Source: Escherichia phage ES12
Length of the DNA: 64,000 nucleotides
Reading direction: 5' to 3' (one strand)
Sequence record: MN508614.1
Positions 4,161 to 63,342 of the stretch are shown piece by piece. A model generated the notes under the pieces. That model worked only from the letters and a program-made list of their open reading frames with translations. It did no database searches and had not been told where the DNA came from. The position numbers were made by a program, and so were the translations under genes. Position 1 is the stretch's first letter. The number at the start of each line of letters is the position of its first letter.

Positions 4161-4189
4161 AATGAAAAAAGGACTCCCGAAGGAGTCCT
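4161..4189 (-). terminator. rho-independent terminator hairpin
   Basis: aggactcc-cgaa-ggagtcct stem-loop followed on minus strand by a U-run, immediately downstream of ORF 4194..4370. Confidence 0.6.
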
Positions 4190-4193
4190 CAAC

Positions 4194-11156: not shown

Positions 11157-12744
<1,588 letters not shown>

Positions 12745-23896: not shown

Positions 23897-23904
23897 TATA
23901 AATA
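23897..23904 (+). promoter_or_regulatory. late promoter TATAAATA for gene 34
   Basis: Exact TATAAATA ~35 nt upstream of gene 34 ATG with GGAG RBS. Confidence 0.7.
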
Positions 23905-23938: not shown

Positions 23939-26900
23939 ATGGCCGAGATTAAAAGAAAGTTCAGAGCAGAAGATGGTCTGGACGCAGGTGGCGATAAAAT
24001 AATCAACGTAGCTTTAGCTGATCGTACCGTAGGAACTGACGGTGTTAACGTTGATTACTTAATTCAAGAAAACACAGTTCAGCAATATGATCCAACTCGT
24101 GGATATTTAAAAGATTTTGTAATCATTTATAATAATCGTTTTTGGGCAGCAACGGATAATATTCCAAAACCTGCTGGAAATTTTAATAGAATTCGTTGGA
24201 AAGCATTACGTACTGATGCCGTATATACAACCGTATCATCTGGACCATATCAATTAAAATCCGGAGAAGCAATTTCAGTAGATACATCAGTTGGCAATGA
24301 CATTGAGTTTACTTTACCACCTTCTCCGCTTGATGGAGAAACCGTAATAATTCAAGATATCGGTGGAAAACCTGGCATAAATCAGGTTAAAATAAATTCT
24401 TCAAATCAGAGTATTGTCAATTTTAGAGGTGAACAGGTACGTTCAGTTTTAATGACTCATCCAAAGTCACAGATGGTATTCATTTTTAATAATCGTTTGT
24501 GGCAAATGTATATTGCTGATTATAGCAGAGAAGCTGCGATTGTTACTCCATCGACTGCATATCAAGCACAATCTAATGATTTTATCGTACGTAGATTTAC
24601 TTCTGCCGCACCGATTAATGTTAAACTTCCAAGATTTGCCAATCATGGAGATATCATTAATTTCGTTGATTTAGATAAATTAAATCCACTTTATCATACA
24701 ATTGTCACGACATATGATGAAACAACTTCAGTACAAGAAGTTGGAACTCATTCCATTGAAGGCCGTACATCGATTGACGGTTTCTTGATGTTTGATGATA
24801 GTGAAAAATTATGGAGATTGTTTGACGGGGATAGTAAAGCACGTTTACGCATTATAACGACTAATTCAAACATTCGTCCAAATGAAGAAGTTATGGTATT
24901 TGGTGCGAATAATGGAACAACTCAAACGATTGAACTTCAGCTTCCAACTAATATTTCTGTTGGTGATACTGTTAAAATTTCCATGAATTACATGAGAAAA
25001 GGACAAACAGTTAAAATCAAAGCTGCCGGTGAAGATAAAATTGCTTCTTCAGTTCAATTGCTGCAATTCCCAAAACGCTCAGAATATCCACCTGAAGCTG
25101 AATGGGTGACTGTTCAAGAATTAGTTTTTAACGGTGAAACTAATTATGTTCCAGTTTTACAGCTTGCTTATATTGAAGATTCTGACGGAAAATACTGGGT
25201 AGTACAACAAAACGTTCCAACAGTTGAAAGAGTCGATTCTTTAAATAATTCTACTAGAGCAAGATTAGGCGTAATTGCTTTAGCTACACAAGCCCAAGCT
25301 AACGTCGATTTAGAAAATTCTCCACAAAAAGAATTAGCAATTACTCCAGAAACATTAGCTAACCGTACTGCTACAGAAACTCGTAGAGGTATCGCAAGAA
25401 TAGCAACTACTGCTCAAGTAAATCAGAACACTACATTCTCTTTTGCTGATGACCTTATCATCACTCCTAAAAAGCTGAATGAAAGAACTGCTACAGAAAC
25501 TCGTAGAGGTGTTGCTGAAATTGCTACGCAGCAGGAAACTAATACAGGTATCGATGATACTACAATCATCACTCCTAAAAAGCTTCAAGCTCGTCAAGGT
25601 TCTGAATCATTATCAGGTATTGTAACTTTTGTATCTACCGCAGGAGCTACCCCAGCTTCTAGTCGTGAATTAAATGGTACAAATGTTTACAATAAAAACA
25701 CTAATAATTTAGTTGTTTCGCCTAAAGCACTGGATCAGTATAAAGCTACTCCAACACAGCAAGGTGCAGTAATTTTAGCAGTTGAAAGTGAAGTAATTGC
25801 TGGACAAAGCCAAGAAGGATGGGCAAATGCGGTTGTAACGCCAGAAACGTTACATAAAAAGACATCAACTGATGGAAGAATTGGTTTAATTGAAATTGCT
25901 ACGCAAAGTGAAGTTAATACAGGAACTGATTATACTCGCGCAGTCACTCCTAAAACTTTAAATGACCGTAGAGCAACTGAAAGTTTAAGTGGTATAGCTG
26001 AAATTGCTACACAAGTTGAATTCGACGCAGGCGTCGACGATACTCGTATCTCTACACCATTAAAAATTAAAACTAGATTTAATAGTACTGATCGTACTTC
26101 TGTTGTTGCTCTATCTGGATTAGTTGAATCAGGAACTCTCTGGGACCATTATACCCTTAATATTCTTGAAGCAAATGAGACACAGCGTGGTACACTTCGT
26201 GTAGCTACACAAGTTGAAGCTGCTGCAGGAACATTAGATAATGTTTTAATAACTCCTAAAAAGCTTTTAGGTACTAAATCTACCGAATCGCAAGAAGGTG
26301 TTATTAAAGTTGCAACTCAGTCTGAAACCGTGACTGGAACGTCAGCAAATACTGCTGTATCTCCAAAAAATTTAAAATGGATTGTGCAGAGTGAACCTAC
26401 TTGGGCAGCTACTACTGCGATAAGAGGTTTTGTTAAAACCTCATCTGGTTCAATTACGTTCGTTGGTAATGATACAGCTGGTTCTACGCAGGACTTAGAA
26501 CTATATGAGAAAAATGGTTATGCAGTATCACCATATGAATTAAACCGTGTATTAGCAAATTATTTGCCGTTAAAAGCAAAAGCTGCTGACGCAAATTTAT
26601 TAGATGGTCTAGATTCATCTCAGTTCATTCGTAGGGATATTGCCCAGACAGTTAATGGTTCACTAACCTTAACCAAACAAACGAACCTGAGTGCCCCTCT
26701 TGTATCATCTAGTACTGCTACGTTTGGTGGATCAGTTTCAGCAAATAGTACATTAACTATTTCTAATACTGGAACGGCAACTCGTCTGATTTTTGAGAAA
26801 GGACCTCAAACTGGAACAAACCCAGCTCAAACGATGACAGTCAGAGTGTGGGGAAATCAATTTAGTGGGGAATCAGACACAACACGTTCTACCGTATTTG

Positions 26901-27808
26901 AAGTTAGTGATGAAACGTCTAGTCATTTTTATTCTCAGCGTAATAAAGCTGGAAATATAACATTTAATATCAACGGTACAGTAACACCGATAAATGTTAA
27001 TGCTTCAGGAACATTGAATGCAAATGGTGTAGCAACATTTGGTAATTCAGTCACTGCAACTGGTGAAATTATTTCTCGAAGCGCAAATGCTTTCCGTGCT
27101 ATTAGCGGAAATTATGGTTTCATTGTTCGCAATGACGGGTCAGTAACGAATTTTATGCTTACTGCATCGGGTGATCAGACTGGTGGATTTAATGGATTAC
27201 GTCCATTGTCCATTAATAATCAATCTGGGCAGGTCACAATTGGTGAAAGCTTGATCATTGCTAAAGGTGCTACTATAAATTCAGGTGGTTTAACTGTTAA
27301 CTCGAGAATTCGTTCTCAGGGTACTAAAACCTCTGATTTATATACCCGTGCGCCAACATCTGATACAGTAGGATTCTGGTCAATCGATATTAATGATTCA
27401 GCCACTTATAACCAGTTCCCGGGTTATTTTAAAATGGTTGAAAAAACTAATGAAGTGACTGGACTTCCATACTTAGAACGTGGTGAAGAAGTTAAATCTC
27501 CTGGTACATTGACTCAGTTTGGTAACACACTTGATTCACTTTACCAAGATTGGATTACTTATCCAACGACCCCAGAAGCACGTACCACTCGCTGGACACG
27601 TACATGGCAGAAAACCAAAAACTCTTGGTCAAGTTTTGTTCAGGTATTTGACGGAGGTAACCCTCCTCAACCTTCAGATATAGGAGCGATCCCATCTGAT
27701 AATGGAATAATAGGTAATCTTACTATTCGCGATTTCTTGCGAATTGGTAATGTTCGCATTATTCCTGACCCAGTGAATAAAACTGTTAAATTTGAGTGGA
27801 TTGAATAA
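23939..27808 (+). CDS. 34: long tail fibre proximal subunit, 1289 aa
   Basis: 1289-aa ORF with internal repeated TPKKL/ATETRRG motifs; first gene of the 34-35-36-37 block. Confidence 0.95.
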   Translation: MAEIKRKFRAEDGLDAGGDKIINVALADRTVGTDGVNVDYLIQENTVQQYDPTRGYLKDFVIIYNNRFWAATDNIPKPAGNFNRIRWKALRTDAVYTTVSSGPYQLKSGEAISVDTSVGNDIEFTLPPSPLDGETVIIQDIGGKPGINQVKINSSNQSIVNFRGEQVRSVLMTHPKSQMVFIFNNRLWQMYIADYSREAAIVTPSTAYQAQSNDFIVRRFTSAAPINVKLPRFANHGDIINFVDLDKLNPLYHTIVTTYDETTSVQEVGTHSIEGRTSIDGFLMFDDSEKLWRLFDGDSKARLRIITTNSNIRPNEEVMVFGANNGTTQTIELQLPTNISVGDTVKISMNYMRKGQTVKIKAAGEDKIASSVQLLQFPKRSEYPPEAEWVTVQELVFNGETNYVPVLQLAYIEDSDGKYWVVQQNVPTVERVDSLNNSTRARLGVIALATQAQANVDLENSPQKELAITPETLANRTATETRRGIARIATTAQVNQNTTFSFADDLIITPKKLNERTATETRRGVAEIATQQETNTGIDDTTIITPKKLQARQGSESLSGIVTFVSTAGATPASSRELNGTNVYNKNTNNLVVSPKALDQYKATPTQQGAVILAVESEVIAGQSQEGWANAVVTPETLHKKTSTDGRIGLIEIATQSEVNTGTDYTRAVTPKTLNDRRATESLSGIAEIATQVEFDAGVDDTRISTPLKIKTRFNSTDRTSVVALSGLVESGTLWDHYTLNILEANETQRGTLRVATQVEAAAGTLDNVLITPKKLLGTKSTESQEGVIKVATQSETVTGTSANTAVSPKNLKWIVQSEPTWAATTAIRGFVKTSSGSITFVGNDTAGSTQDLELYEKNGYAVSPYELNRVLANYLPLKAKAADANLLDGLDSSQFIRRDIAQTVNGSLTLTKQTNLSAPLVSSSTATFGGSVSANSTLTISNTGTATRLIFEKGPQTGTNPAQTMTVRVWGNQFSGESDTTRSTVFEVSDETSSHFYSQRNKAGNITFNINGTVTPINVNASGTLNANGVATFGNSVTATGEIISRSANAFRAISGNYGFIVRNDGSVTNFMLTASGDQTGGFNGLRPLSINNQSGQVTIGESLIIAKGATINSGGLTVNSRIRSQGTKTSDLYTRAPTSDTVGFWSIDINDSATYNQFPGYFKMVEKTNEVTGLPYLERGEEVKSPGTLTQFGNTLDSLYQDWITYPTTPEARTTRWTRTWQKTKNSWSSFVQVFDGGNPPQPSDIGAIPSDNGIIGNLTIRDFLRIGNVRIIPDPVNKTVKFEWIE

Positions 27809-27816
27809 GAGGTATT

Positions 27817-28932
27817 ATGGAAAAATTTATGGCAGAGTTTGGACAAGGATATGTCCAAACGCCATTTTTATCGGAAAGCAATTCAGTAAGATATAAAATA
27901 AGCATAGCGGGTTCTTGCCCGCTTTCTACTGCGGGACCATATGTTAAATTTCAGGATAATCCCGTTGGAAATCAAACATTTAGTGCAGGTCTTCATTTAA
28001 GAGTTTTTGACCCTTCTACGGGAGCATTAGTTGATAGCAAGTCATATGCTTTTTCTGCTTCAAACAATACAACATCTGCCGCTTTTGTCAGTTTCATGAA
28101 TTCTTTGTCAAACAATAGACTTGTTGCTATATTAACTAGCGGAAAGGTTAATTTTCCTCCTGAAGTGGTATCTTGGTTAAGGGGAGCAGGAACTTCAGTT
28201 TTTCCATCAGATTCAGTATTGTCAAGATTTGACGTGTCATATGCTGCTTTTTATACTTCTTCTAAAAGAGCTATTGCATTAGAGCATGTTAAACTAAGTA
28301 ATAGAAAAAGCACAGATGATTATCAAACTATTTTAGATGTTGTATTTGATAGTTTAGAAGACGTCGGAGCTACAGGATTTCCTAAAAGAACATATGAAAG
28401 TGTAGAGCAATTCATGTCAGCAGTTGGTGGAACTAATAACGAAATTGCGCGATTGCCAACTTCAGCTGCTATAAGTAAACTTTCTGACTACAATTTAATT
28501 CCTGGTGATGTTCTTTATCTTAAAGCACAACTATATGCTGATGCTGATTTACTTGATCTTGGAACTACAAATATATCTATTCGTTTTTATGATGCATCAA
28601 ATGGATATATTTCCTCGACCCAAGCTGAGTTTACTGGGCAAGCTGGGTCTTGGGAATTAAAAGAAGATTATGTAGTTGTTCCTGAAAATGCAGTAGGATT
28701 TACGATATATGCACAAAGAACTGCCCAAGCAGGTCAAGGCGGCATGAGAAATTTAAGCTTTTCTGAAGTATCAAGAAATGGCGGCATTTCAAAACCTGCC
28801 GAATTTGGCGTCAACGGTATTCGCGTTAATTATGTCTGCGAATCGGCTTCACCTCCAGATATAATGGTACTTCCTACACAAGCCTCTTCTAAAACTGGCA
28901 AAGTGTTTGGGCAAGAATTTAGAGAAGTTTAA
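27817..28932 (+). CDS. 35: long tail fibre hinge connector, 371 aa
   Basis: MEKFMAEF... 371 aa, immediately after gene 34. Confidence 0.9.
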   Translation: MEKFMAEFGQGYVQTPFLSESNSVRYKISIAGSCPLSTAGPYVKFQDNPVGNQTFSAGLHLRVFDPSTGALVDSKSYAFSASNNTTSAAFVSFMNSLSNNRLVAILTSGKVNFPPEVVSWLRGAGTSVFPSDSVLSRFDVSYAAFYTSSKRAIALEHVKLSNRKSTDDYQTILDVVFDSLEDVGATGFPKRTYESVEQFMSAVGGTNNEIARLPTSAAISKLSDYNLIPGDVLYLKAQLYADADLLDLGTTNISIRFYDASNGYISSTQAEFTGQAGSWELKEDYVVVPENAVGFTIYAQRTAQAGQGGMRNLSFSEVSRNGGISKPAEFGVNGIRVNYVCESASPPDIMVLPTQASSKTGKVFGQEFREV

Positions 28933-28935
28933 ACT

Positions 28936-28960
28936 GAGGGAGCCTTCGGGTTCCCTTTTT
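28936..28960 (+). terminator. hairpin terminator after gene 35
   Basis: gggagcc-ttcg-ggttccc stem-loop followed by TTTTT. Confidence 0.5.
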
Positions 28961-28963
28961 CTT

Positions 28964-28971
28964 TATAAATA
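28964..28971 (+). promoter_or_regulatory. late promoter TATAAATA for genes 36-37-38
   Basis: Exact TATAAATA ~25 nt upstream of gene 36 ATG. Confidence 0.7.
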
Positions 28972-28994
28972 ATATTAAAATAAAGGGGCATATA

Positions 28995-29645
28995 ATGGCT
29001 GATTTAAAAGTAGGTTCAACTGTAGGTGGATCTGTCATTTGGCATCAAGGAAATTTTCCATTGAATTCAGCCGGTGACGATGTACTCTACAAATCATTTA
29101 AAATATATTCAGAATATAATAAACCACAGGCAGCTGATAACGATTTCGTTTCTAAAGCTAATGGTGGTACTTACACCGGTCCAATTACTATTAATTACGG
29201 GGTAAATAGTTATCTTCAATTAAGTAATAATGAAACCCCCATTCGAATTCGTTCTGGTGGCGGTACCGGTAATACTCTTGTAGTTGGCGGCTCTTCCGGC
29301 GGTATTAGTTTTAGACCTGCAGGTAGTGAAATCACTACTGGACAAATTACTATTACACCAGAAGGTTTGACAACATTTACCAGGGCTGTAACGGCTCCAT
29401 CGGTAACTGTTACATCTACTCCTTCCGCAGCATCTGATGTTACTCGCAAAGATTATGTTGATGGAGCAATAAATACTGTTACAGCAAATGCAAACTCTAG
29501 GGTATTACGCTCTGGAGACACTATGACAGGAAATTTAACTGCGCCAAACCTTTTTTCACAGAATCCTGCATCTCAACCTTCACACGTTCCACGATTTGAC
29601 CAAATCGTAATTAAGGATTCTGTTCAAGATTTCGGCTATTATTAA
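28995..29645 (+). CDS. 36: long tail fibre distal connector, 216 aa
   Basis: [38 protein letters not shown]... gp36-like. Confidence 0.9.
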
Positions 29646-29653
29646 GAGGACTT

Positions 29654-32620
29654 ATGGCTACTTTAAAACAAATACAATTTAAAAGAAGCAAAATTGCAGG
29701 TCAACGTCCTGCAGCTTCAGTATTAGCCGAAGGTGAATTGGCTATAAACTTAAAAGATAAAACAATTTTCACAAAAGATGACTCAGGTAGTGTTATAGAA
29801 TTAGGTTTAAAATATGGAGGAACTATAAATGGATCTTTAGAGGTTACAGAAAATATAACTGGAACTTTAATTGGAAATTCTAGTACAGCTACTAAATTGC
29901 AAACACCTAGGAAAATTAATGGTATATCTTTTGATGGATCAAAGGACATTACACTAACTCCATCTGATATAAATGTAAATAGTACAACGTTTATAAAAAA
30001 TAACGGCGAATTACCTGTTGATGCTAATTTAGATGAGTATGGGCCTGTTGAAGAATATCTTGGAGTTTGGTCGAAAGCAACTTCAACCAACGCTCAACCA
30101 GCAAATAAATTTCCAGAAGAAAATGCTGTAGGTGTTCTAGAAGTATTTGTGGCCGGTCAATTTGCTGGTACTCAGAGATATACAACTAGATACGGAAATG
30201 TTTATATTCGTTCCTTGACTGCTACATGGAACGGAGTAAACGGTCCGTGGAGTGCGTGGCGAAATATTCAATCTGGTACTCGTCCACTGTCAACAACGAT
30301 TGATCTTAATGATCTAGGAGGCGCTGAACACCTTGGTTTGTGGCGAAATAGTTCAAATTCCATTGCTACCTTTGACAGAAATTTCCCAGAAGAAGGATCG
30401 TCCGCTCAAGGACTTTTAGAAGTATATGAAGGTGGAAACTATTCTCGCACACAGAGATATACGACCAGATTTGGTGTTGTTTATACTCGTTGTCTTGCTG
30501 CTGCGTGGGATGCTTCTGCGCCTAAATGGGGACCTTGGCAACAAGTCGGTAATGTCACACCGGCGACTTTCTATGACGGAGATCTGAATGATTTTAAAAC
30601 TCCTGGGTTATATAATATTTTAGGCACTGATGCCGTTATTAACTGTCCTACCGGTGAAGGTTTGCCGACTGTTATTGTTGGTTTGCTGGAAGTTAAACAG
30701 CGTGCTTCTGGCGGTGCTATTTTCCAAAAATTTACTACTGCCGGAACGGGTGCAACTACCCGCGATCGTATTTTTGAGCGCGCATATACCGGCGGTGTTT
30801 GGGGTGCATGGAACGAAGTATATACATCTTATTCTCTGCCAATTACTTTGGGTATGGGTGGTATTAAAGCTCAATTAGCGGAGTTAGATTGGCAAACCTT
30901 TGATTTTGTCCCTGGTAGTATGTTTAGCGTTCCTTTGAATAAAATAAAGAACATGCCAGCAAATATGGATTGGGGGACGATTGATGGAAACTTGGTTATG
31001 TTTTCTGTCGGTCCTAGTGAACATACTAGCACAGGGCGCACTGTTCAGGTTTGGCGCGGTACTGTATCCCAGACAAACTACCGTTATTTTGTCGTTCGTG
31101 TATTCGGTAATTCAGGAAATAGAACTTGCACAGTTCGTCGTGTTGTTCTTGAAGATGGTCGCCACAAATGGACAGCGCAGCAAGATTTTAATGGCGCAGT
31201 TAACTTCGGTGCTGCAACCACGTTTAAATCAACTACAACTTTTAATACAGAAGTTAAATTTCGCGCATTGAATGCGTTCCGCCTGTATGGCGGAAAATTT
31301 GGTACATTTTTACGTAATGATGGAGAGAGTCTTTATATTCTTTCCACCGACGAAGATGATCAAGATGGAAACTTTAATACAAATAGACCTTTCCGTTATG
31401 AATTAAGAACTGGTGATGTTACTTTGGGTGGTGCTAGTGGTGCTAACGTTTTAAAATTAAAACGTGATTCTCTCACCGCATTTTTTGGCGGTGATATTAA
31501 CATTAAAGGCACGATGACTTTTGACGCCGGACGTTTAGGATCACGAGATTATTTTAAATTTAACCATTGGGGTGATAGTAATAATGCGCGTGATAATATC
31601 ATCCAGTTAGAAGACAGCAAAGGCGCTCATTTTTCCACTGAACGTACTTTAGCGACTGGTGCAATTAAGACTAAATTTTTTGGTGAAATTGAATCCGATG
31701 GTAAATTGGTTATTAAACGTCCGGGTGATTCTATTGTATTATCAACAACTGCTAGTAATTCTTTGCATATTCGCGGTGATATAGACGGGACTGGTAACTG
31801 GTATATTGGTAAAGGTGATGCTGATAATGGATTAGCGTTCTATAGTTATGCTACTAATGCTGGTGTATACATTACAAACGCAGGAGATATCTCGCTAAGT
31901 CCAAAGGGTGCCGAAATGGCTCAGGTCAATAACGTTCGATTATATGTTCATGGTGAACGTTGGACCGCTAGTCAACCAGGTGATTGGGGTAGTCAGTGGC
32001 AAGTGGAAGCGCCAATATTCGTCGATCATGGTTATGTTGGACCAGATAGCTATTATCCAATTATTAAAGGAAGAAGTGTAATCACCAATCAAGGGTTTGT
32101 AACTGCCGTCGATCTTGGTATTCGTCGTGTCAATAACAATTGGGGACAAGCAATTATTCGTGTTGGATCTGCGGAGGCATCGCCAGCGGCTGGACACCCT
32201 AACGCGATATTTGAATTTCATTACGACGGTACTTTCTATTCTCCTGGTAATGGTAACTTTAACGATGTGTATATTCGTTCCGATGGTCGTCTTAAGATTA
32301 ATAAAAAAGAGCTAGAAAACGGAGCACTTGAAAAAGTATGCCGACTGAAAGTTTATATTTACGATAAGGTTAAGTCTATTAAAGACCGTAGTGTTATTAA
32401 ACGCGAAGTTGGTATTATTGCTCAGGACCTTGAAAAGGAATTACCGGAAGCTGTGTCTAAAGTTGAAGTTGATGGTTCTGATGTTCTGACAATTTCTAAC
32501 TCCGCTGTAAATGCTCTTTTAATTAAGGCTATCCAAGAAATGAGCGAAGAAATTAAAGAATTAAAAACGCCTTTCTTCACTAAAATTGCTCGCAAAATTA
32601 GTAATTATTTTAAATTCTAA
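29654..32620 (+). CDS. 37: long tail fibre distal subunit, 988 aa, with C-terminal chaperone-like domain
   Basis: N-terminus [35 protein letters not shown] = gp37; C-terminus (...[24 protein letters not shown]...) resembles an intramolecular chaperone domain. Confidence 0.9.
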
Positions 32621-32652
32621 CAACAAGGGGCTTTGCCCCTTTGGAGAAAATT

Positions 32653-33453
32653 ATGGCAGTAGTTGGTGTTCCTGGTTGGATTGGAAGTTCATCCGTAAAT
32701 GAAACAGGACAACGATGGATGAGTCAAGCGGCTGGTCAATTAAGATTGGGTATTCCTTGCTGGATGAGTCAATTTGCAGGTCGCTCAAGAGAAATTATTC
32801 ACACGCTTGGAGCAGACCATAACTTCAATGGTCAATGGTTCCGAGATAGATGTTTTGAGGCAGGTAGTGCACCTATAGTGTTTAATATCACAGGAAATTT
32901 GGTATCATATTCTAGAGATGTTCCTTTATTCTTCATGTATGGAGATACACCAAATGAATATGTTCAGTTGAATATTAGCGGTGGAGCTCATATGTGGGGC
33001 AGAGGTGGACAAGGTGGATGGACTCATTCTGGTGGAGATGGTAATGGTCAACAGGGTGGACATTGTATTCAAAATGACATTGGTGGTCGGTTAAGAATTA
33101 ATAATGGTGGAGTAATTTGTGGCGGAGGAGGCGGTGGCGGCGGTATCGCTTATCGTCCTCACTCTGGTGCAAACTGGCAAGATATTGGTGGCGGTGGAGG
33201 AAGACCGTTTGGCCCAGGAGGTGGCGGTGGTTATTCAGGAGGTGCTGCTTCTTATGATGGCCCAGGAGGTGGTTATAATTATGGTAATGCTCACTCTGGT
33301 CAAGGTGGCGATGCTGGAGGAAATGGACAAAATGCCTGGCATGATGGTGGTAAAGTTCTAAAAGTTGGCGCTGGCGGGGCGGCAGGTTATGCTGTAATAG
33401 GGTCTGCTCCAACATGGCAAAATGTTGGAATAATATATGGTCCAAGAGTATAA
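32653..33453 (+). CDS. 38: T2-type tail fibre adhesin with glycine-rich motifs, 266 aa
   Basis: From ATG at 32653 (ORF track start is TTG): [13 protein letters not shown]...; four poly-Gly islands separating variable segments. Confidence 0.85.
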
Positions 33454-33484
33454 TTTTGAATAAATACCCTTAAAAGGAGGGTCT

Positions 33485-34141
33485 ATGACAGCACCTAGAA
33501 TATCATTTTCGCCCTCTGGTATTCTGTTTGGTGTTCTAGATCGCTTGTTCAAAGATAACGCTACCGGGAAGGTTCTTGCTTCCCGGGTAGCTGTCGTAAT
33601 TCTTTTGTTTATAATGGCGATTGTTTGGTATAGGGGAGATAGTTTCTTTGAGTACTATAAGCAATCAAAGTATGAAACATACAGTGAAATTATTGAAAAG
33701 GAAAGAAATGCACGCTTTGAATCTGTCGCCCTGGAACAACTCCAGATAGTTCATATATCATCTGAGGCAGACTTTAGTGCGGTGTATTCTTTCCGCCCTA
33801 AAAACTTAAACTATTTTGTTGATATTATAGCATATGAAGGAAAATTACCTTCAACAATAAGTGAAAAATCACTTGGAGGATATCCTGTTGATAAAACTAT
33901 GGATGAATATGCAGTTCATTTAAATGGACGTCATTATTATTCAAACTCAAAATTTGCTTTTTTACCAACTAAAAAGCCTACTCCCGAAATAAATTACATG
34001 TACAGTTGTCCATATTTTAATTTGGATAATATCTATGCTGGAACAATAACCATGTACTGGTATAGAAATGATCATATAAGTAATGACCGCCTTGAATCAA
34101 TATGTGCTCAGGCGGCCAGAATATTAGGAAGGGCTAAATAA
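33485..34141 (+). CDS. t: holin, 218 aa
   Basis: MTAPRISFSPSGILFGVLDRLFKDNATGKVLASRVAVVILLFIMAIVWY... = T4 holin T. Confidence 0.95.
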   Translation: MTAPRISFSPSGILFGVLDRLFKDNATGKVLASRVAVVILLFIMAIVWYRGDSFFEYYKQSKYETYSEIIEKERNARFESVALEQLQIVHISSEADFSAVYSFRPKNLNYFVDIIAYEGKLPSTISEKSLGGYPVDKTMDEYAVHLNGRHYYSNSKFAFLPTKKPTPEINYMYSCPYFNLDNIYAGTITMYWYRNDHISNDRLESICAQAARILGRAK

Positions 34142-34414
34142 TTATTTGTTTGTATACATCTCTAGATATCGATATACACCCTCAAAACCCTCGTTGAATT
34201 CGTCGATGAGGGTTTTCTTATCTTCTTGAGTTAATTCAGAAACAATTTTACGGAATGAATTCTGATTTAACTTTCTACCTTCATGCGTTACTCCAATCTC
34301 ATTCAGAAATGCAATAAAATTAGCACGATTCTCAACAATATCTTCTCTGGAAAATTTAATCAAAATAGACGCAACAGTAATAATTTCACGAACTGTATCA
34401 ATATTTTTATTCAT
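34142..34414 (-). CDS. asiA: anti-sigma70 protein, 90 aa
   Basis: MNKNIDTVREIITVASILIKFSREDIVENRANFIAFLNEIGV... = AsiA. Confidence 0.9.
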   Translation of the reverse strand: MNKNIDTVREIITVASILIKFSREDIVENRANFIAFLNEIGVTHEGRKLNQNSFRKIVSELTQEDKKTLIDEFNEGFEGVYRYLEMYTNK

Positions 34415-34426
34415 TAACTATACCAC

Positions 34427-34579
34427 TCAATTAGTTGACTTTGCTATAATATCATCAGACGTTTGATTTGTAAACTGGTCTGTGGTATTTTCTTCAAAAA
34501 TTTTTTCTACGAATTCCTTGAACGACTTACGTTCCTGAGCTACATTATGCTCGATTACTTTTTCAAGATTATGACTCAT
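34427..34579 (-). CDS. small hypothetical protein, 50 aa
   Basis: Hand-translated (below ORF-track size cut-off): MSHNLEKVIEHNVAQERKSFKEFVEKIFEENTTDQF...; ATGA overlap with arn stop. Confidence 0.35.
   Translation of the reverse strand: MSHNLEKVIEHNVAQERKSFKEFVEKIFEENTTDQFTNQTSDDIIAKSTN
34446..34475 (-). promoter_or_regulatory. early promoter for asiA (GTTTAC -35, TATTAT -10)
   Basis: Reverse complement GTTTAC-N18-TATTAT ~30 nt upstream of asiA ATG. Confidence 0.5.
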
Positions 34580-34854
34580 TCGAAATAATCTTCAATTTCA
34601 TAATCAAGGACATAAATCATTATAGTTTTTAATACATCATCAATACTTTTTCCTGGAGCTGGAATTACGTAAAAATATCCTGCTTTTGAGTTATCTTTAT
34701 AAGTTCCAATCAAGAAATCATTATTCCCAAGATGTAGTTCTTCAACTAATTCATTAACAATTGAGTGATATAAATTTGGTAGAAACTTGTATAGCTTTTC
34801 TAGAATATCAATTTTGATTGTGTATTGAACCACAGATTGAGAATCAATAATCAT
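34576..34854 (-). CDS. arn: anti-restriction nuclease (McrBC inhibitor), 92 aa
   Basis: 92-aa acidic ORF adjacent to asiA as in T4. Confidence 0.7.
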   Translation of the reverse strand: MIIDSQSVVQYTIKIDILEKLYKFLPNLYHSIVNELVEELHLGNNDFLIGTYKDNSKAGYFYVIPAPGKSIDDVLKTIMIYVLDYEIEDYFE

Positions 34855-39118: not shown

Positions 39119-39199
39119 TCACTGGCGTCCGAAGACGCCTTTAGTTTTAAGATTATTACGATAGAACTGCATCACGTGTTCGTTGTGGAAATTACTCAT
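39119..39199 (-). CDS. stp: Stp peptide (suppressor of three-prime phosphatase), 26 aa
   Basis: Hand-translated [26 protein letters not shown], the 26-residue T4 Stp as recalled; TAATG overlap with ndd stop. Confidence 0.85.
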
Positions 39200-41560: not shown

Positions 41561-41587
41561 CTCTTAAAACAAAAGGGCCGAAGCCCT
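41561..41587 (-). terminator. hairpin terminator downstream of rIIB-distal ORF
   Basis: agggc-cgaa-gccct hairpin with U-rich tract on minus strand; identical hairpin repeated at ~41797. Confidence 0.45.
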
Positions 41588-41591
41588 TATT

Positions 41592-41786: not shown

Positions 41787-41814
41787 AATTTTCCTTAGTT
41801 AAGGGCCGAAGCCC

Positions 41815-42753
41815 TTATTTAAATTGTTCAGTAACGTCTTCAACTACTTCGTATTGGCAGGTACGCATTTTAGCATCGTTGTAATCAATCGGAATTGATA
41901 CTACATCGCGAGGATGAACCTTAACTTTTACAACTCGGCTGGTTGAACTGCCAAAGTGACGAATATAAGATTTAGAACACACATGCAGACCACGAGAACA
42001 AGTTTGTGTATCATCGTCATTCACACGAGTACGTGGCATTTTAACTACTTTACCCGGACTGTTATCAAAGGTGTTTGAGTGACAGTCAAAGTAATTGCTG
42101 CGAACTACTTTCCAAGCATAGAAGTAGCCATCTTCTGTAATTTCAATATCATTTGCTACCAAGAAATCAAAGAGTCGAGATACCGCTTTTTGGCTTGGGT
42201 TTTCCAGCAGATTTTCCAAGAACGGAAAATAAAATTCAAAGTTTTCACCTTTTTCCATCGAGTCGAGAATACGATCAACCAAACCAGATCGCAATTCAAT
42301 ATTTTGATAGAACAAGCTTCCACCTTCAATTCGAACATCACCGGAAATATATTTTTCAACAGCGCGACGAACATTAATTTTTTGTGCCGCTTCTTCCAAC
42401 TTATCCGCTACAAGCAGATTAAGAATTTCCTGGAAGTTTGAATGAGTATTAGGAGTTGCGTTATAAGTTACACCATCAACAGTAATTGAAATGAATTTTT
42501 TAGATGCATTCCAAATAATGTCAGATTTAGCAACTGGAGCAATAACTGCATCGCTATTAACTTTAACTGTAATATCACCACTAATAGTAACTTTAGGGCG
42601 TTTAGCTTCTTCAGCATTTTTCAAAACACGACGGATTGTGTCAACCGATACATCCTTCCAATAAGCTAATTCCTGCTGAGTGTAATTACCACTTGAATAC
42701 AGTTTAACAATTTCAGCTTGTTCGTTTTTGGTCAGGCATTTAATATTGTACAT
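41815..42753 (-). CDS. rIIB: rIIB membrane-associated rapid-lysis protein, 312 aa
   Basis: MYNIKCLTKNEQAEIVKLYSSGNYTQQELAYWKDVSVDTIRR... = T4 rIIB. Confidence 0.95.
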   Translation of the reverse strand: MYNIKCLTKNEQAEIVKLYSSGNYTQQELAYWKDVSVDTIRRVLKNAEEAKRPKVTISGDITVKVNSDAVIAPVAKSDIIWNASKKFISITVDGVTYNATPNTHSNFQEILNLLVADKLEEAAQKINVRRAVEKYISGDVRIEGGSLFYQNIELRSGLVDRILDSMEKGENFEFYFPFLENLLENPSQKAVSRLFDFLVANDIEITEDGYFYAWKVVRSNYFDCHSNTFDNSPGKVVKMPRTRVNDDDTQTCSRGLHVCSKSYIRHFGSSTSRVVKVKVHPRDVVSIPIDYNDAKMRTCQYEVVEDVTEQFK

Positions 42754-47028: not shown

Positions 47029-47097
47029 CACTTATCCTCGTTTGGTTTCGGGAATATTATACTCCGGTAATCATAAAGCTAAAGGCCCGAAGGCCTT

Positions 47098-47358
47098 TTA
47101 TTTAAAACGGATAGTCGAATCTTTGAAGAATAGACCAGAACATACTGTTCCTTCTACTTTCTGCCCGGTAGGTCCAATAGCACGAAATCCAGTATGCTGG
47201 AAATCATTTTCAGAGCAACCGAACCAATTATATCCAGTGATTTCAATATTAGTAAAACCGCTTGATGACAAAATTTTGGTTGCATTATCAGTATCAGTAC
47301 ATCCTGCTAAAGACACTGCTAATACTAATGCTGCGATAGAACGATTAATATATTTCAT
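47098..47358 (-). CDS. predicted lipoprotein, ~86 aa
   Basis: Signal peptide + lipobox LAGC (MKYINRSIAALVLAVSLAGCTD); ORF track GTG extension trimmed. Confidence 0.5.
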   Translation of the reverse strand: MKYINRSIAALVLAVSLAGCTDTDNATKILSSSGFTNIEITGYNWFGCSENDFQHTGFRAIGPTGQKVEGTVCSGLFFKDSTIRFK

Positions 47359-57629: not shown

Positions 57630-57658
57630 AAATGAAAAAAGGAATCCCGAAGGATTCC
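57630..57658 (-). terminator. soc rho-independent terminator
   Basis: ggaatcc-cgaa-ggattcc hairpin followed on minus strand by a U-run, directly after soc stop. Confidence 0.65.
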
Positions 57659-57667
57659 TTAAATTAT

Positions 57668-62985: not shown

Positions 62986-63342
62986 TTAAAAGAATTTAAA
63001 CTTTTTCTTTGACCTTTTATTAAATGCATCTTGTAGTTGCATTGTAATACATTTTTCTACATGAGGAGCTAACTCAGCTTTTCTTTCTTGGTCAAGAACA
63101 GCAAAGTCCATTACGACTTTTCCATCAACCCAATCTAATTTTGTCACATACACAATGTGTGTAGAACCATCTTCTAGTTTAATGACAATCTCCTGGATAA
63201 CATTTTCCATAGCGGATTTAATTATCTTAAGAGACTTATTAAAAAGACGTTCTTTTCTTTCTTCTTCCCCCTCCGAAGAGGGGGATTCATCGATAATTTC
63301 TAAATCTAAATCATCTTTACTCATTAAATTCTTCCATATCAC
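62986..63342 (-). CDS. 40: gp40-position protein (head assembly accessory), 112-118 aa
   Basis: ORF between uvsX and 41 as in T4; ORF track start is GTG, first ATG at 63324. Confidence 0.5.
   Translation of the reverse strand: MIWKNLMSKDDLDLEIIDESPSSEGEEERKERLFNKSLKIIKSAMENVIQEIVIKLEDGSTHIVYVTKLDWVDGKVVMDFAVLDQERKAELAPHVEKCITMQLQDAFNKRSKKKFKFF

Follow-up and report, generated by a model that had tools for sequence, protein, structure and literature searches.

Genes 37 and 38 of a T-even phage matching Escherichia phage ES26 encode a probable adhesin-type tail fiber tip with OmpA as its likely receptor

We analyzed a 64,000-nucleotide stretch of DNA (the window) that matches Escherichia phage ES26 (MN508618.1) with 100% identity, and we conclude that positions 29654 to 33453 very probably constitute the module for receptor recognition at the distal end of a long tail fiber, of the adhesin (T2/T6/S16) type, in a Tequatrovirus. 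Gene structure, family membership, a catalytic motif, predicted folds, near-identity to typed adhesins and conservation of an intercistronic hairpin give direct support, and nothing contradicts the module architecture. The whole tip module is already known and published, including the gp37 of ES26, to which the gp37 of the window is 100% identical.

All features described here are on the + strand. Open reading frames (ORFs), Pfam matches and comparison with T4 gave the gene order 34-35-36-37-38-t-asiA, the same as in T4. Gene 37 (29654..32620) is an ORF for a long tail fiber distal subunit precursor (988 aa, 108.3 kDa), and gene 38 (32653..33453) is an ORF for a tail fiber tip adhesin (266 aa); both lie exactly where an earlier note on this DNA had placed them, with a spacer of 32 nt between them. 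Since the annotated relatives of gp38 all begin MAVVG, we set the start of gene 38 at ATG 32653 and not at the upstream TTG (32641) chosen by the ORF lister. A Shine-Dalgarno sequence, GGAG (32643..32646), was read 6 nt before this ATG. An exact match to the T4-type late promoter motif, TATAAATA, is located upstream of gene 36 (28964..28971); its promoter function is deduced from the known T4 late-promoter consensus. Elsewhere on the + strand, TATAAATA occurs only at 11693 and, shortly before gene 34, at 23897, and an exact-match scan found no copy between 28972 and 33453. By analogy with T4, the motif at 28964 is likely to be the start of a 36-37-38(-t) late transcript.

The gp38 protein matches PF21721 (Gp38_N; 72 bits; cutoff, 25) at aa 1 to 42, PF05268 (GP38; 229 bits; cutoff, 25) at aa 47 to 266, and phrog_2056 (E value, 2.4e-112). 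The PF21721 segment (32653..32778) is the N-terminal attachment domain and contains Trp9, Trp22 and Trp37. In 63 homologues, W9 and W22 are invariant and W37 is nearly so; in S16, the tryptophans have been likened to “prongs” entering the tip of gp37 (PMC7917993). The glycine-rich receptor-binding domain, defined by Gly runs and invariant Gly columns, spans aa 116 to 266 (32998..33450), where glycine accounts for 38% of residues versus 12% at aa 1 to 115. Conserved Gly clusters lie at approximately aa 116 to 122, 135 to 136, 157 to 164, 179 to 190, 205 to 207, 216 to 225 and 241 to 245, and across alignments of gp38 homologues these clusters do not change, unlike the variable segments that lie between them. 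The four poly-Gly islands reported earlier exist as literal runs of at least three glycines (exactly four, at aa 157 to 164, 179 to 183, 189 to 193 and 205 to 207), but in the published architecture there are five glycine-rich motifs, with four hypervariable segments between them (PMC3157838, PMC12032242). Another publication describes five distal loops, flanked by ten polyglycine motifs (PMC7917993).

Comparison of gp38 with PDB sequences identified 9v85 (6.6e-72) and 6f45_D (1.2e-49). The same two entries, from PP01 and S16, were the only structural matches of an AF2 model of gp38 (pLDDT, 86). Gene 38 lies immediately 3′ of a chaperone-bearing gene 37, as it does in 12 of 12 adhesin-type comparison phages. 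We conclude from sequence and model that gp38 is an adhesin of the PF21721 + PF05268 family with a predicted polyglycine sandwich fold. Both Pfam models and the S16/PP01 fold bear out the earlier description of a 266-aa gp38 with T2-type architecture. The term “T2-type” applies to the architecture only, since the adhesin itself is an RB32 allele (97%) and is ~46 to 49% identical to T2-like gp38.

In tblastn searches with gp38, the low-complexity filter masks the Gly-rich half of the protein, and coverage ends at ~aa 150 for diverged matches. Hence, we used a DNA search of the C-terminal half together with explicit alignments. The protein is identical to RB32 gp38 at 259 of 266 positions (97%). 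Its residues 116 to 266 are 95 to 99% identical to those of SH7, KIT03, FL08 and AV119 (95 to 96% for the last two), and 44 to 57% identical to those of M1, T6, Ac3, T2-like slur07, FL18 and Bp7; its hypervariable segments are of the RB32/FL08/AV119 type (“type 1” OmpA adhesins). RB32 needs OmpA and is LPS sensitive, and recognition of OmpA/LPS is acquired when the RB32/33 hypervariable block is transferred (PMC3157838). FL08 and AV119 fail to infect an ompA deletion strain, and the OmpA-contact residues modeled in the same study are R165, R181, D217 and R262 (PMC12032242); these are conserved in the gp38 of the window as R168, R184, D220 and R265. Given the 97% identity to the OmpA-requiring RB32 and the 95 to 96% identity of the binding half to FL08 and AV119, the primary receptor of the window phage is likely to be OmpA, with recognition possibly modulated by LPS. 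The alignment with typed adhesins that the earlier note had proposed as a route to the receptor thus points to OmpA. A literature search for the receptor of ES26 found no paper reporting one.

Retargeting by a few loop substitutions, such that gp38 would recognize Tsx, OmpC, OmpF, FadL or LPS alone, is unlikely. [quoted passage not shown] In the binding region, the gp38 of the window differs from that of RB32 at two positions, N174K and G223A (residue 174 is N here and K in RB32), and it differs from FL08 and AV119 at five or six loop positions (P169, D202, G203, N209, H230). Moreover, OmpF/LPS is the receptor of Yersinia phages whose gp37 tips are similar. However, the whole protein remains 97% identical to RB32 gp38, the binding domain falls within a coherent OmpA “type 1” clade (95 to 99%), and the modeled OmpA-contact residues are conserved, whereas T6, which uses Tsx, is only 54% identical over aa 116 to 266 and the receptor-binding domain of PP01, which uses OmpC, is 63 to 64% identical in structural alignment. 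OmpA is therefore retained as the likely receptor.

The small hairpin that had been noticed between genes 37 and 38 proved to be real, with compensatory changes across T-even phages. The RNA hairpin AAGGGGC-UUU-GCCCCUU (32625..32641), between the stop codon of gene 37 and the Shine-Dalgarno sequence of gene 38, has a perfect 7-bp stem (−11 kcal/mol); the window contains 10 hairpins of that strength, versus 0.7 expected from block shuffles. A hairpin is found at the same position in 13 other phages, T4 included. Across the 14 phages, pairs 1 to 5 always pair, and double-sided changes occur at pairs 1, 2, 4, 5 and 6. The fold z-score of the 71-nt hairpin context was not significant (−0.51), and the significance of the hairpin therefore rests on cross-phage conservation and the window-wide shuffle. 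An Rfam scan of 28800 to 34600 assigned the hairpin to no family. We conclude that it belongs to the numerous conserved GC-rich hairpins that T-even mRNAs typically carry between cistrons. The Shine-Dalgarno sequence of gene 38 follows 1 to 2 nt after it, and this closeness suggests that the hairpin acts in the stability, processing or translation of the mRNA.

The hairpin loop varies. It is UUU in the window phage, ESh25 and G9062, and AAAUG in fFiEco06; among the remaining ten phages, it is UUCG in nine and UACG in STML-198. For comparison, we used the UUCG hairpins of T4 reportedly described by Tuerk et al. in 1988. The UUCG (UNCG) tetraloop closed by C-G is absent from the 37-38 hairpin of the window. 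An IMG/VR pattern scan for the window's hairpin variant picked up just two contigs; these are unrelated, and each has the canonical UUCG loop. Conceivably, but improbably, the loop differences in gp38 and the lost UUCG tetraloop give an altered OmpA-allele/LPS range or an altered gp38:gp37 expression ratio relative to RB32, FL08 and AV119. In that case, the phage would represent a naturally occurring variant in host range that could serve adhesin engineering.

A GC-rich 7-bp stem directly after a stop codon could also be an intrinsic transcription terminator separating genes 37 and 38, but this is quite unlikely. Only three U residues lie downstream, and a terminator scan does not report 32625 to 32641. 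In addition, the equivalents in T4, T2 and Merlin lack a U-tract, and no late promoter lies downstream that could restart gene 38. We therefore rejected the terminator and regard the structure as an intercistronic hairpin of the common T-even kind.

The gp37 protein matches phrog_1699 (“long tail fiber protein distal subunit”) over aa 1 to 983 (E value, 2.7e-223). Its conserved N-terminal segment (aa 1 to 64; 29654..29845) is 77% identical to aa 1 to 64 of T4 gp37 (1e-26) and, by analogy with T4 fiber anatomy, is presumed to be the junction with gp36. Two tandem copies of an ~85-aa domain occupy aa 118 to 300 (30005..30553); they are 39% identical to each other (BLASTP; 3e-20) and lie within a match to phrog_4618 (aa 106 to 325). 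There may be a third, more divergent copy at aa 305 to 395, which did not reach significance by BLASTP. A published study reported “three pyocin knob domains” in ES26 gp37 (PMC9127763). The “pyocin knob” label rests on the literature and the internal repeat; the region containing the repeats (aa 100 to 400) matched no PDB sequence. Residues 512 to 624 (31187..31525) form a shaft segment homologous to the C-terminal trimerization region of gp34, as judged by a match to PF21446 (Gp34_trimer; 46 bits), similarity to the T4 gp34 structures 4uxe and 5nxf (4e-8), and 36% identity to aa 1023 to 1102 of the window phage's own gp34. Residues 454 to 864 retain weak homology to T4 gp37 (21 to 25% identity). 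The earlier statement that gp37 matches T4 only at its N terminus is therefore slightly overstated, although the match is strong solely at aa 1 to 64. No NCBIfam model matches gp37 or gp38.

The last 113 of the 988 residues of gp37 (aa 876 to 988; 32279..32617; 12.8 kDa), at the extreme C terminus of the fiber subunit, form a predicted intramolecular chaperone (Peptidase_S74) domain. Residues 876 to 934 match PF13884 (Peptidase_S74, “chaperone of endosialidase”; 43 bits; cutoff, 22), with model positions 1 to 57 of 58 aligned and position 1 at S876. The conserved pair Ser876 (32279-32281) and Lys881 (32294-32296) lies in the motif DVYIR^SDGRLK, and the lysine is five residues downstream of the cleavage-site serine, as expected of the catalytic pair. 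The pattern S-D-x-x-L/I/V-K is kept in every homologue that covers the gp37 site (18 to 23 proteins), down to 36% identity; the 129-aa chaperone fragment used as the query returned 29 proteins, mostly fragments. A related motif, R/S-S-D-x-R-x-K, is present in the gp37 tail of all 12 sampled phages with an adhesin-type gene 38 directly downstream and is absent from T4 gp37. From the motif, DVYIR (aa 871 to 875; 32264..32278) is predicted to form the new C terminus once gp37 has matured and to serve as the surface on which gp38 docks. The site DVYIR^SDGRLKI has been discussed for fPS-2/65/90 on the basis of an alignment with the S16 cleavage site (PMC7917993).

An AF2 model of the chaperone domain had a pLDDT of 82; it represents a monomer of a trimeric domain and is hence an approximation. 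The only significant Foldseek match was the MyRF ICA domain (7dc3; E value, 1.4e-5; TM, 0.68; probability, 1.00), and the next-ranked structures, GA-1 3gud, endoNF 3gw6 and the T5 fiber 4uw8, are all intramolecular chaperones. A profile search identified S16 gp37 (6f45_A; 1.3e-18), as well as 7dc3 and 3gud. We conclude from sequence and model that gp37 ends in a Peptidase_S74 intramolecular chaperone with a predicted released fragment of 113 residues; autocleavage would occur at R875-S876. The resemblance to auto-cleaved chaperones suggested in the earlier note agrees with PF13884, the Ser/Lys motif and the predicted fold, and the peptide quoted there is present. The C-terminal location also stands, but the domain has 113 residues (S876 to F988) and not ~100.

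The presence of this domain has led to a different proposal, that gp37 is a depolymerase or endosialidase-like enzyme degrading capsule or biofilm polysaccharide. “Putative endosialidase activity” was proposed for the gp37 of ES26 and its sister phages from its S74 and pyocin-knob annotations (PMC9127763). We regard this as very unlikely and rejected it. PF13884 is a folding and cleavage module only, common to fibers without enzymatic activity, and the remainder of gp37 matches long tail fiber shaft families. No endosialidase catalytic, beta-propeller or tail spike Pfam family was found in gp37 at an E value of ≤0.01, the only families being PF21446 and PF13884, and a search of PDB sequences with gp37 gave no endosialidase matches. 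Thus, the folding domain is present, but no catalytic domain was found.

We also rejected, as extremely unlikely, a gp38 acting solely as an assembly chaperone, as in T4, with the gp37 tip itself binding the receptor: some database entries still give homologues the name “distal long tail fiber assembly catalyst,” but gp38 has no similarity to T4 gp38 (BLASTP; best E value, 0.72), gp37 does not have a C-terminal tip sequence of the T4 type (its alignment to T4 is confined to aa 1 to 64 and the shaft), and the fold of gp38 is the one found in the adhesins of S16 and PP01, crystallized as a fiber tip complex and a receptor-binding domain, respectively. Neither of the two outcomes named in the earlier note as refuting its reading, a gp38 aligning with the T4 chaperone or a gp37 C terminus lacking the chaperone fold, was observed.

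With gp37 as a chaperone-bearing fiber subunit and gp38 as its adhesin, assembly of the tip would proceed as follows. Transcription of genes 36, 37 and 38 would be late, with TATAAATA at 28964 as the probable promoter. The gp37 protein would be made as a 988-aa precursor whose C-terminal 113 aa (876 to 988) aid the register and folding of three chains, after which the chaperone would cut itself off at the R875-S876 bond by means of Ser876/Lys881. The final strand, DVYIR, of mature gp37 (875 aa, ~95.5 kDa) would then form the tip, on which one gp38 monomer would dock through its N-terminal domain (Trp9, Trp22, Trp37). We infer a 3:1 gp37:gp38 assembly in which the loops of the gp38 polyglycine sandwich are displayed to the host; loops of the RB32/FL08/AV119 type would bind OmpA, possibly in an LPS-modulated manner.

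The importance of these assignments is practical only, and they touch no open biological question. ES26 has been included in phage cocktails for therapy (PMC9127763), and predicting OmpA from the sequence helps in choosing cocktail partners with nonoverlapping receptors. The published suggestion of an endosialidase in the ES26 fiber is corrected to a folding domain only.

Among known systems, RB32 (NC_008515.1) resembles the window phage in gene order and gp38 length (266 aa). The last 40 chaperone residues of its gp37 are identical to those of the window, whereas the middle of the chaperone is only ~73% identical; its gp38 differs by seven substitutions, two of them in the binding region. The tip complex of Salmonella phage S16 (PDB 6F45) shares the architecture of a chaperone-bearing gp37 with a monomeric polyglycine sandwich adhesin. 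S16 gp38 aligns with that of the window at 1.2e-49, with a TM of 0.76 to 0.81 and 43% identity in structural alignment, and its released gp37 fragment is 113 aa, equal to our prediction. In contrast, the receptor of S16 is OmpC, and its gp37 before the cleavage site is unrelated to that of the window, except for the last few residues. The best solved relative of the binding domain is PP01 gp38 (PDB 9V85; 6.6e-72; 63 to 64% identity; target-normalized TM, 0.87), but its hypervariable segments differ throughout, and PP01 binds OmpC (PMC12892980). The Yersinia phages fPS-2/65/90 have a cleavage motif identical to that of the window, DVYIR^SDGRLKI, and a model of chaperone action followed by gp38 docking has been published for them (PMC7917993); their receptors on Yersinia are OmpF together with LPS, or the inner core of LPS, and their gp38 loops differ.

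T4 shares the locus, the gene order, aa 1 to 64 of gp37 (77%) and the position of the hairpin. However, in T4 the receptor-binding tip is part of gp37 itself, which has no S74 domain, and gp38, at 183 aa, is an unrelated chaperone. The gp37 of T2 is 1341 aa long, versus 988 aa in the window. The K1F endosialidase (3GW6), the GA-1 neck appendage (3GUD), the T5 L-shaped fiber (4UW8) and MyRF (7DC3) belong to the same Pfam family as the gp37 chaperone. They share with it the Ser/Lys motif at the start of the domain and the predicted fold with a long C-terminal helix, although identity is only 10 to 22%. Unlike in these four proteins, removal of the gp37 chaperone would also create a docking site for a separate adhesin.

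The 3.8-kb interval at 29654-33453 (plus strand) is 100% identical to that of Escherichia phage ES26 (MN508618.1), the name that we use here for the phage of the window, and about a hundred other Tequatrovirus genomes are 90-96% identical to it. An ORF map and family scans recovered the canonical T-even late fibre cluster in the gene order of T4: gene 34 (23939-27808), gene 35 (27817-28932), gene 36 (28995-29645), gene 37 (29654-32620; 988 aa), gene 38 (32653-33453; 266 aa), and holin gene t (33485-34141). The coordinates, lengths, and quoted peptide of the earlier note, made from the sequence alone, were all correct by the ORF map. Between genes 35 and 36, a 9-bp C(UUCG)G hairpin (28936-28957, plus strand) with a trailing U-run resembles a terminator, and the late-promoter motif TATAAATA (28964-28971) comes directly after it; together (28936-28971), these look like a transcription stop/restart point preceding the 36-37-38 unit. 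The gene asiA (34142-34414) is on the minus strand, convergent with the fibre cluster. The late fibre/holin transcript may end at a 14-bp terminator-like hairpin (34184-34216, plus strand) that lies 43 nt past the stop codon of holin gene t, within the 3′ end of asiA.

Sequence comparison of gp38 with the gp38 chaperone of T4 revealed no similarity. Instead, both adhesin Pfam models matched gp38 (72 and 229 bits), as did the crystal structures of the PP01 gp38 RBD (9V85; 6.6e-72) and S16 gp38 (6F45_D; 1.2e-49), which were also the sole matches across the whole PDB for the AlphaFold model of gp38 (pLDDT, 86). Tryptophans W9, W22, and W37 of the attachment domain are conserved. Glycine is concentrated in the C-terminal binding half (aa 116-266; 32998-33450), where it makes up 38% of residues. 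The earlier note had therefore been right about the adhesin architecture. Its four poly-Gly islands presumably correspond to the four literal poly-G runs; however, the published scheme has four hypervariable segments separated by five glycine-rich motifs (PMC3157838; PMC12032242).

We then considered the receptor. ES26 gp38 is identical to RB32 gp38 at 259 of 266 positions. Trojet et al. (PMC3157838) reported that RB32 requires OmpA and is affected by LPS composition, and that other phages given the hypervariable block of RB32/33 gained OmpA/LPS recognition. As an independent line of evidence, the binding half is 95-96% identical to those of FL08 and AV119, the phages by which the broad-range class of “type 1” OmpA adhesins is defined and which lose infectivity on MG1655 when ompA is deleted (PMC12032242). 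Contacts modelled in that study (R165, R181, D217, and R262) are kept in ES26 as R168, R184, D220, and R265. In contrast, the T6 adhesin (Tsx) shared only 54% identity over aa 116-266, that of M1 57%, a T2-like one 50%, and a “type 2” OmpA adhesin 48%. On the basis of these comparisons, the primary receptor of ES26 is probably OmpA, a prediction tempered by the fact that gp38 adhesins can be retargeted by very few changes in their loops (PMC3157838).

In ES26 and RB32, a T6-like N terminus is joined to the OmpA type 1 C terminus, and FL08 and AV119 carry another N terminus with the same C terminus. The two halves (32653-32790 and 32998-33450) thus assort independently, as already described for modular gp38. 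A 303-aa database match outside the window (P0079), on a 25.7-kb contig labelled E. coli, has the N-terminal ~157 residues of a gp38 adhesin fused to a fibre tip and S74 chaperone; recombination, misassembly, or a chimeric gene call could account for it. In phage JSE (Krischvirus), the gp38 homologue is preceded by three small hypothetical genes rather than gene 37; therefore, 37-38 linkage is not universal outside Tevenvirinae.

The last 113 residues of gp37 are a Peptidase_S74 intramolecular chaperone, as the earlier note had proposed from resemblance to other fibres. PF13884 scored 43 bits (cutoff, 22), with the profile beginning exactly at Ser876, and every homologue spanning the site, down to 36% identity, retains the Ser...Lys pattern (Ser876 and Lys881). 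When aa 860-988 were modelled with AlphaFold (pLDDT, 82), the top PDB matches were exclusively solved chaperone domains of the Peptidase_S74 class: MyRF (7dc3; E, 1.4e-5; TM, 0.68), followed by GA-1 (3gud), endosialidase (3gw6), and the T5 fibre (4uw8). A profile of chaperone homologues also matched the S16 gp37 construct (6f45_A; 1.3e-18). The motif DVYIR^SDGRLKI is the same as that of Yersinia phages fPS-2/65/90, where it was aligned with the cleavage site of S16, which had been defined by experiment; S16 releases 113 residues (PMC7917993). Cleavage before Ser876 would yield a mature fibre of 875 aa (95.5 kDa) and a released fragment of 12.8 kDa. One useful correction concerns the “endosialidase activity” suggested for ES26 gp37 (PMC9127763), which lacks support: the domain is a folding module only, and no catalytic domain was detected in gp37 by Pfam scan or PDB sequence searches.

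Only aa 1-64 of gp37 are strongly conserved relative to T4 gp37 (77% identity), and the C-terminal tip of T4 gp37 has no counterpart in the window's gp37. The match to T4 is not confined to the N terminus, as had been claimed, since the shaft (aa 454-864) retains weak similarity (21-25% identity). Two clear tandem copies of an ~85-aa domain occupy aa 118-205 and 218-300 (39% identity; E, 3e-20), with a third, divergent copy possible within 30005-30838 (aa 118-395). This region, which matched no solved structure by sequence, has been named “three pyocin knob domains” in ES26 (PMC9127763). Residues 512-624 are homologous to the C-terminal trimerisation region of gp34.

The small hairpin noted between genes 37 and 38 (AAGGGGC-UUU-GCCCCUU; 32625-32641, plus strand) is separated by 4 nt from the preceding gene 37 stop and by 1 nt from the GGAG of gene 38 that follows. 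Hairpins are found at the equivalent position in T4, T2, VR20, RB69, AR1, AV119, STML-198, Merlin, CHI14, Ursula, ESh25, G9062, and fFiEco06. Across phages, the five loop-proximal pairs are always paired, and pairs 1, 2, 4, 5, and 6 show compensatory changes on both sides. Given this positional conservation and covariation, we conclude that the hairpin is a selected RNA structure. Its presence does not depend on which type of gene 38 follows, adhesin or T4 chaperone. Outside the ES26 group, the loop is a C(UUCG)G tetraloop in 9 of 10 phages and UACG in STML-198; ES26-group loops are UUU or AAAUG. In fFiEco06, the loop-closing pair is G-C rather than C-G and the loop is AAAUG, so that relative to 32625-32641 the stem is retained and the loop is free to vary. 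A function as a terminator is disfavoured, since the hairpin lacks a U-tract and went unreported in the terminator scan, and a motif search found no late promoter between the hairpin and gene 38; it seems more likely to act in mRNA stability, mRNA processing, or the translation of gene 38. Hairpins of this strength number 10 in the window versus 0.7 expected from block shuffles (~15-fold enrichment), and many strong ones have UUCG loops on the coding strand. Members of a family of GC-rich UUCG-tetraloop hairpins are at 4169-4190, 39124-39139, 41573-41588, 41800-41817, 47081-47098, 57639-57660, and 63266-63285 on the minus strand, and at 28936-28957 on the plus strand. We take the 37-38 hairpin and its kin to be the T4 intercistronic hairpin class described by Tuerk et al. 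(1988).

Overall, the observation is confirmed and its interpretation supported, with minor corrections. The feature is already known, and each element of the 37-38 module has been published: the division of gene 38 products into adhesins and chaperones, with the layout of motifs and segments (PMC3157838), the S16 polyglycine sandwich and the model in which the chaperone acts before docking (PDB 6F45; PMC7917993), receptor prediction by gp38 phylogeny (PMC12032242), and the annotation of ES26 gp37 itself with S74 and knob domains (PMC9127763).
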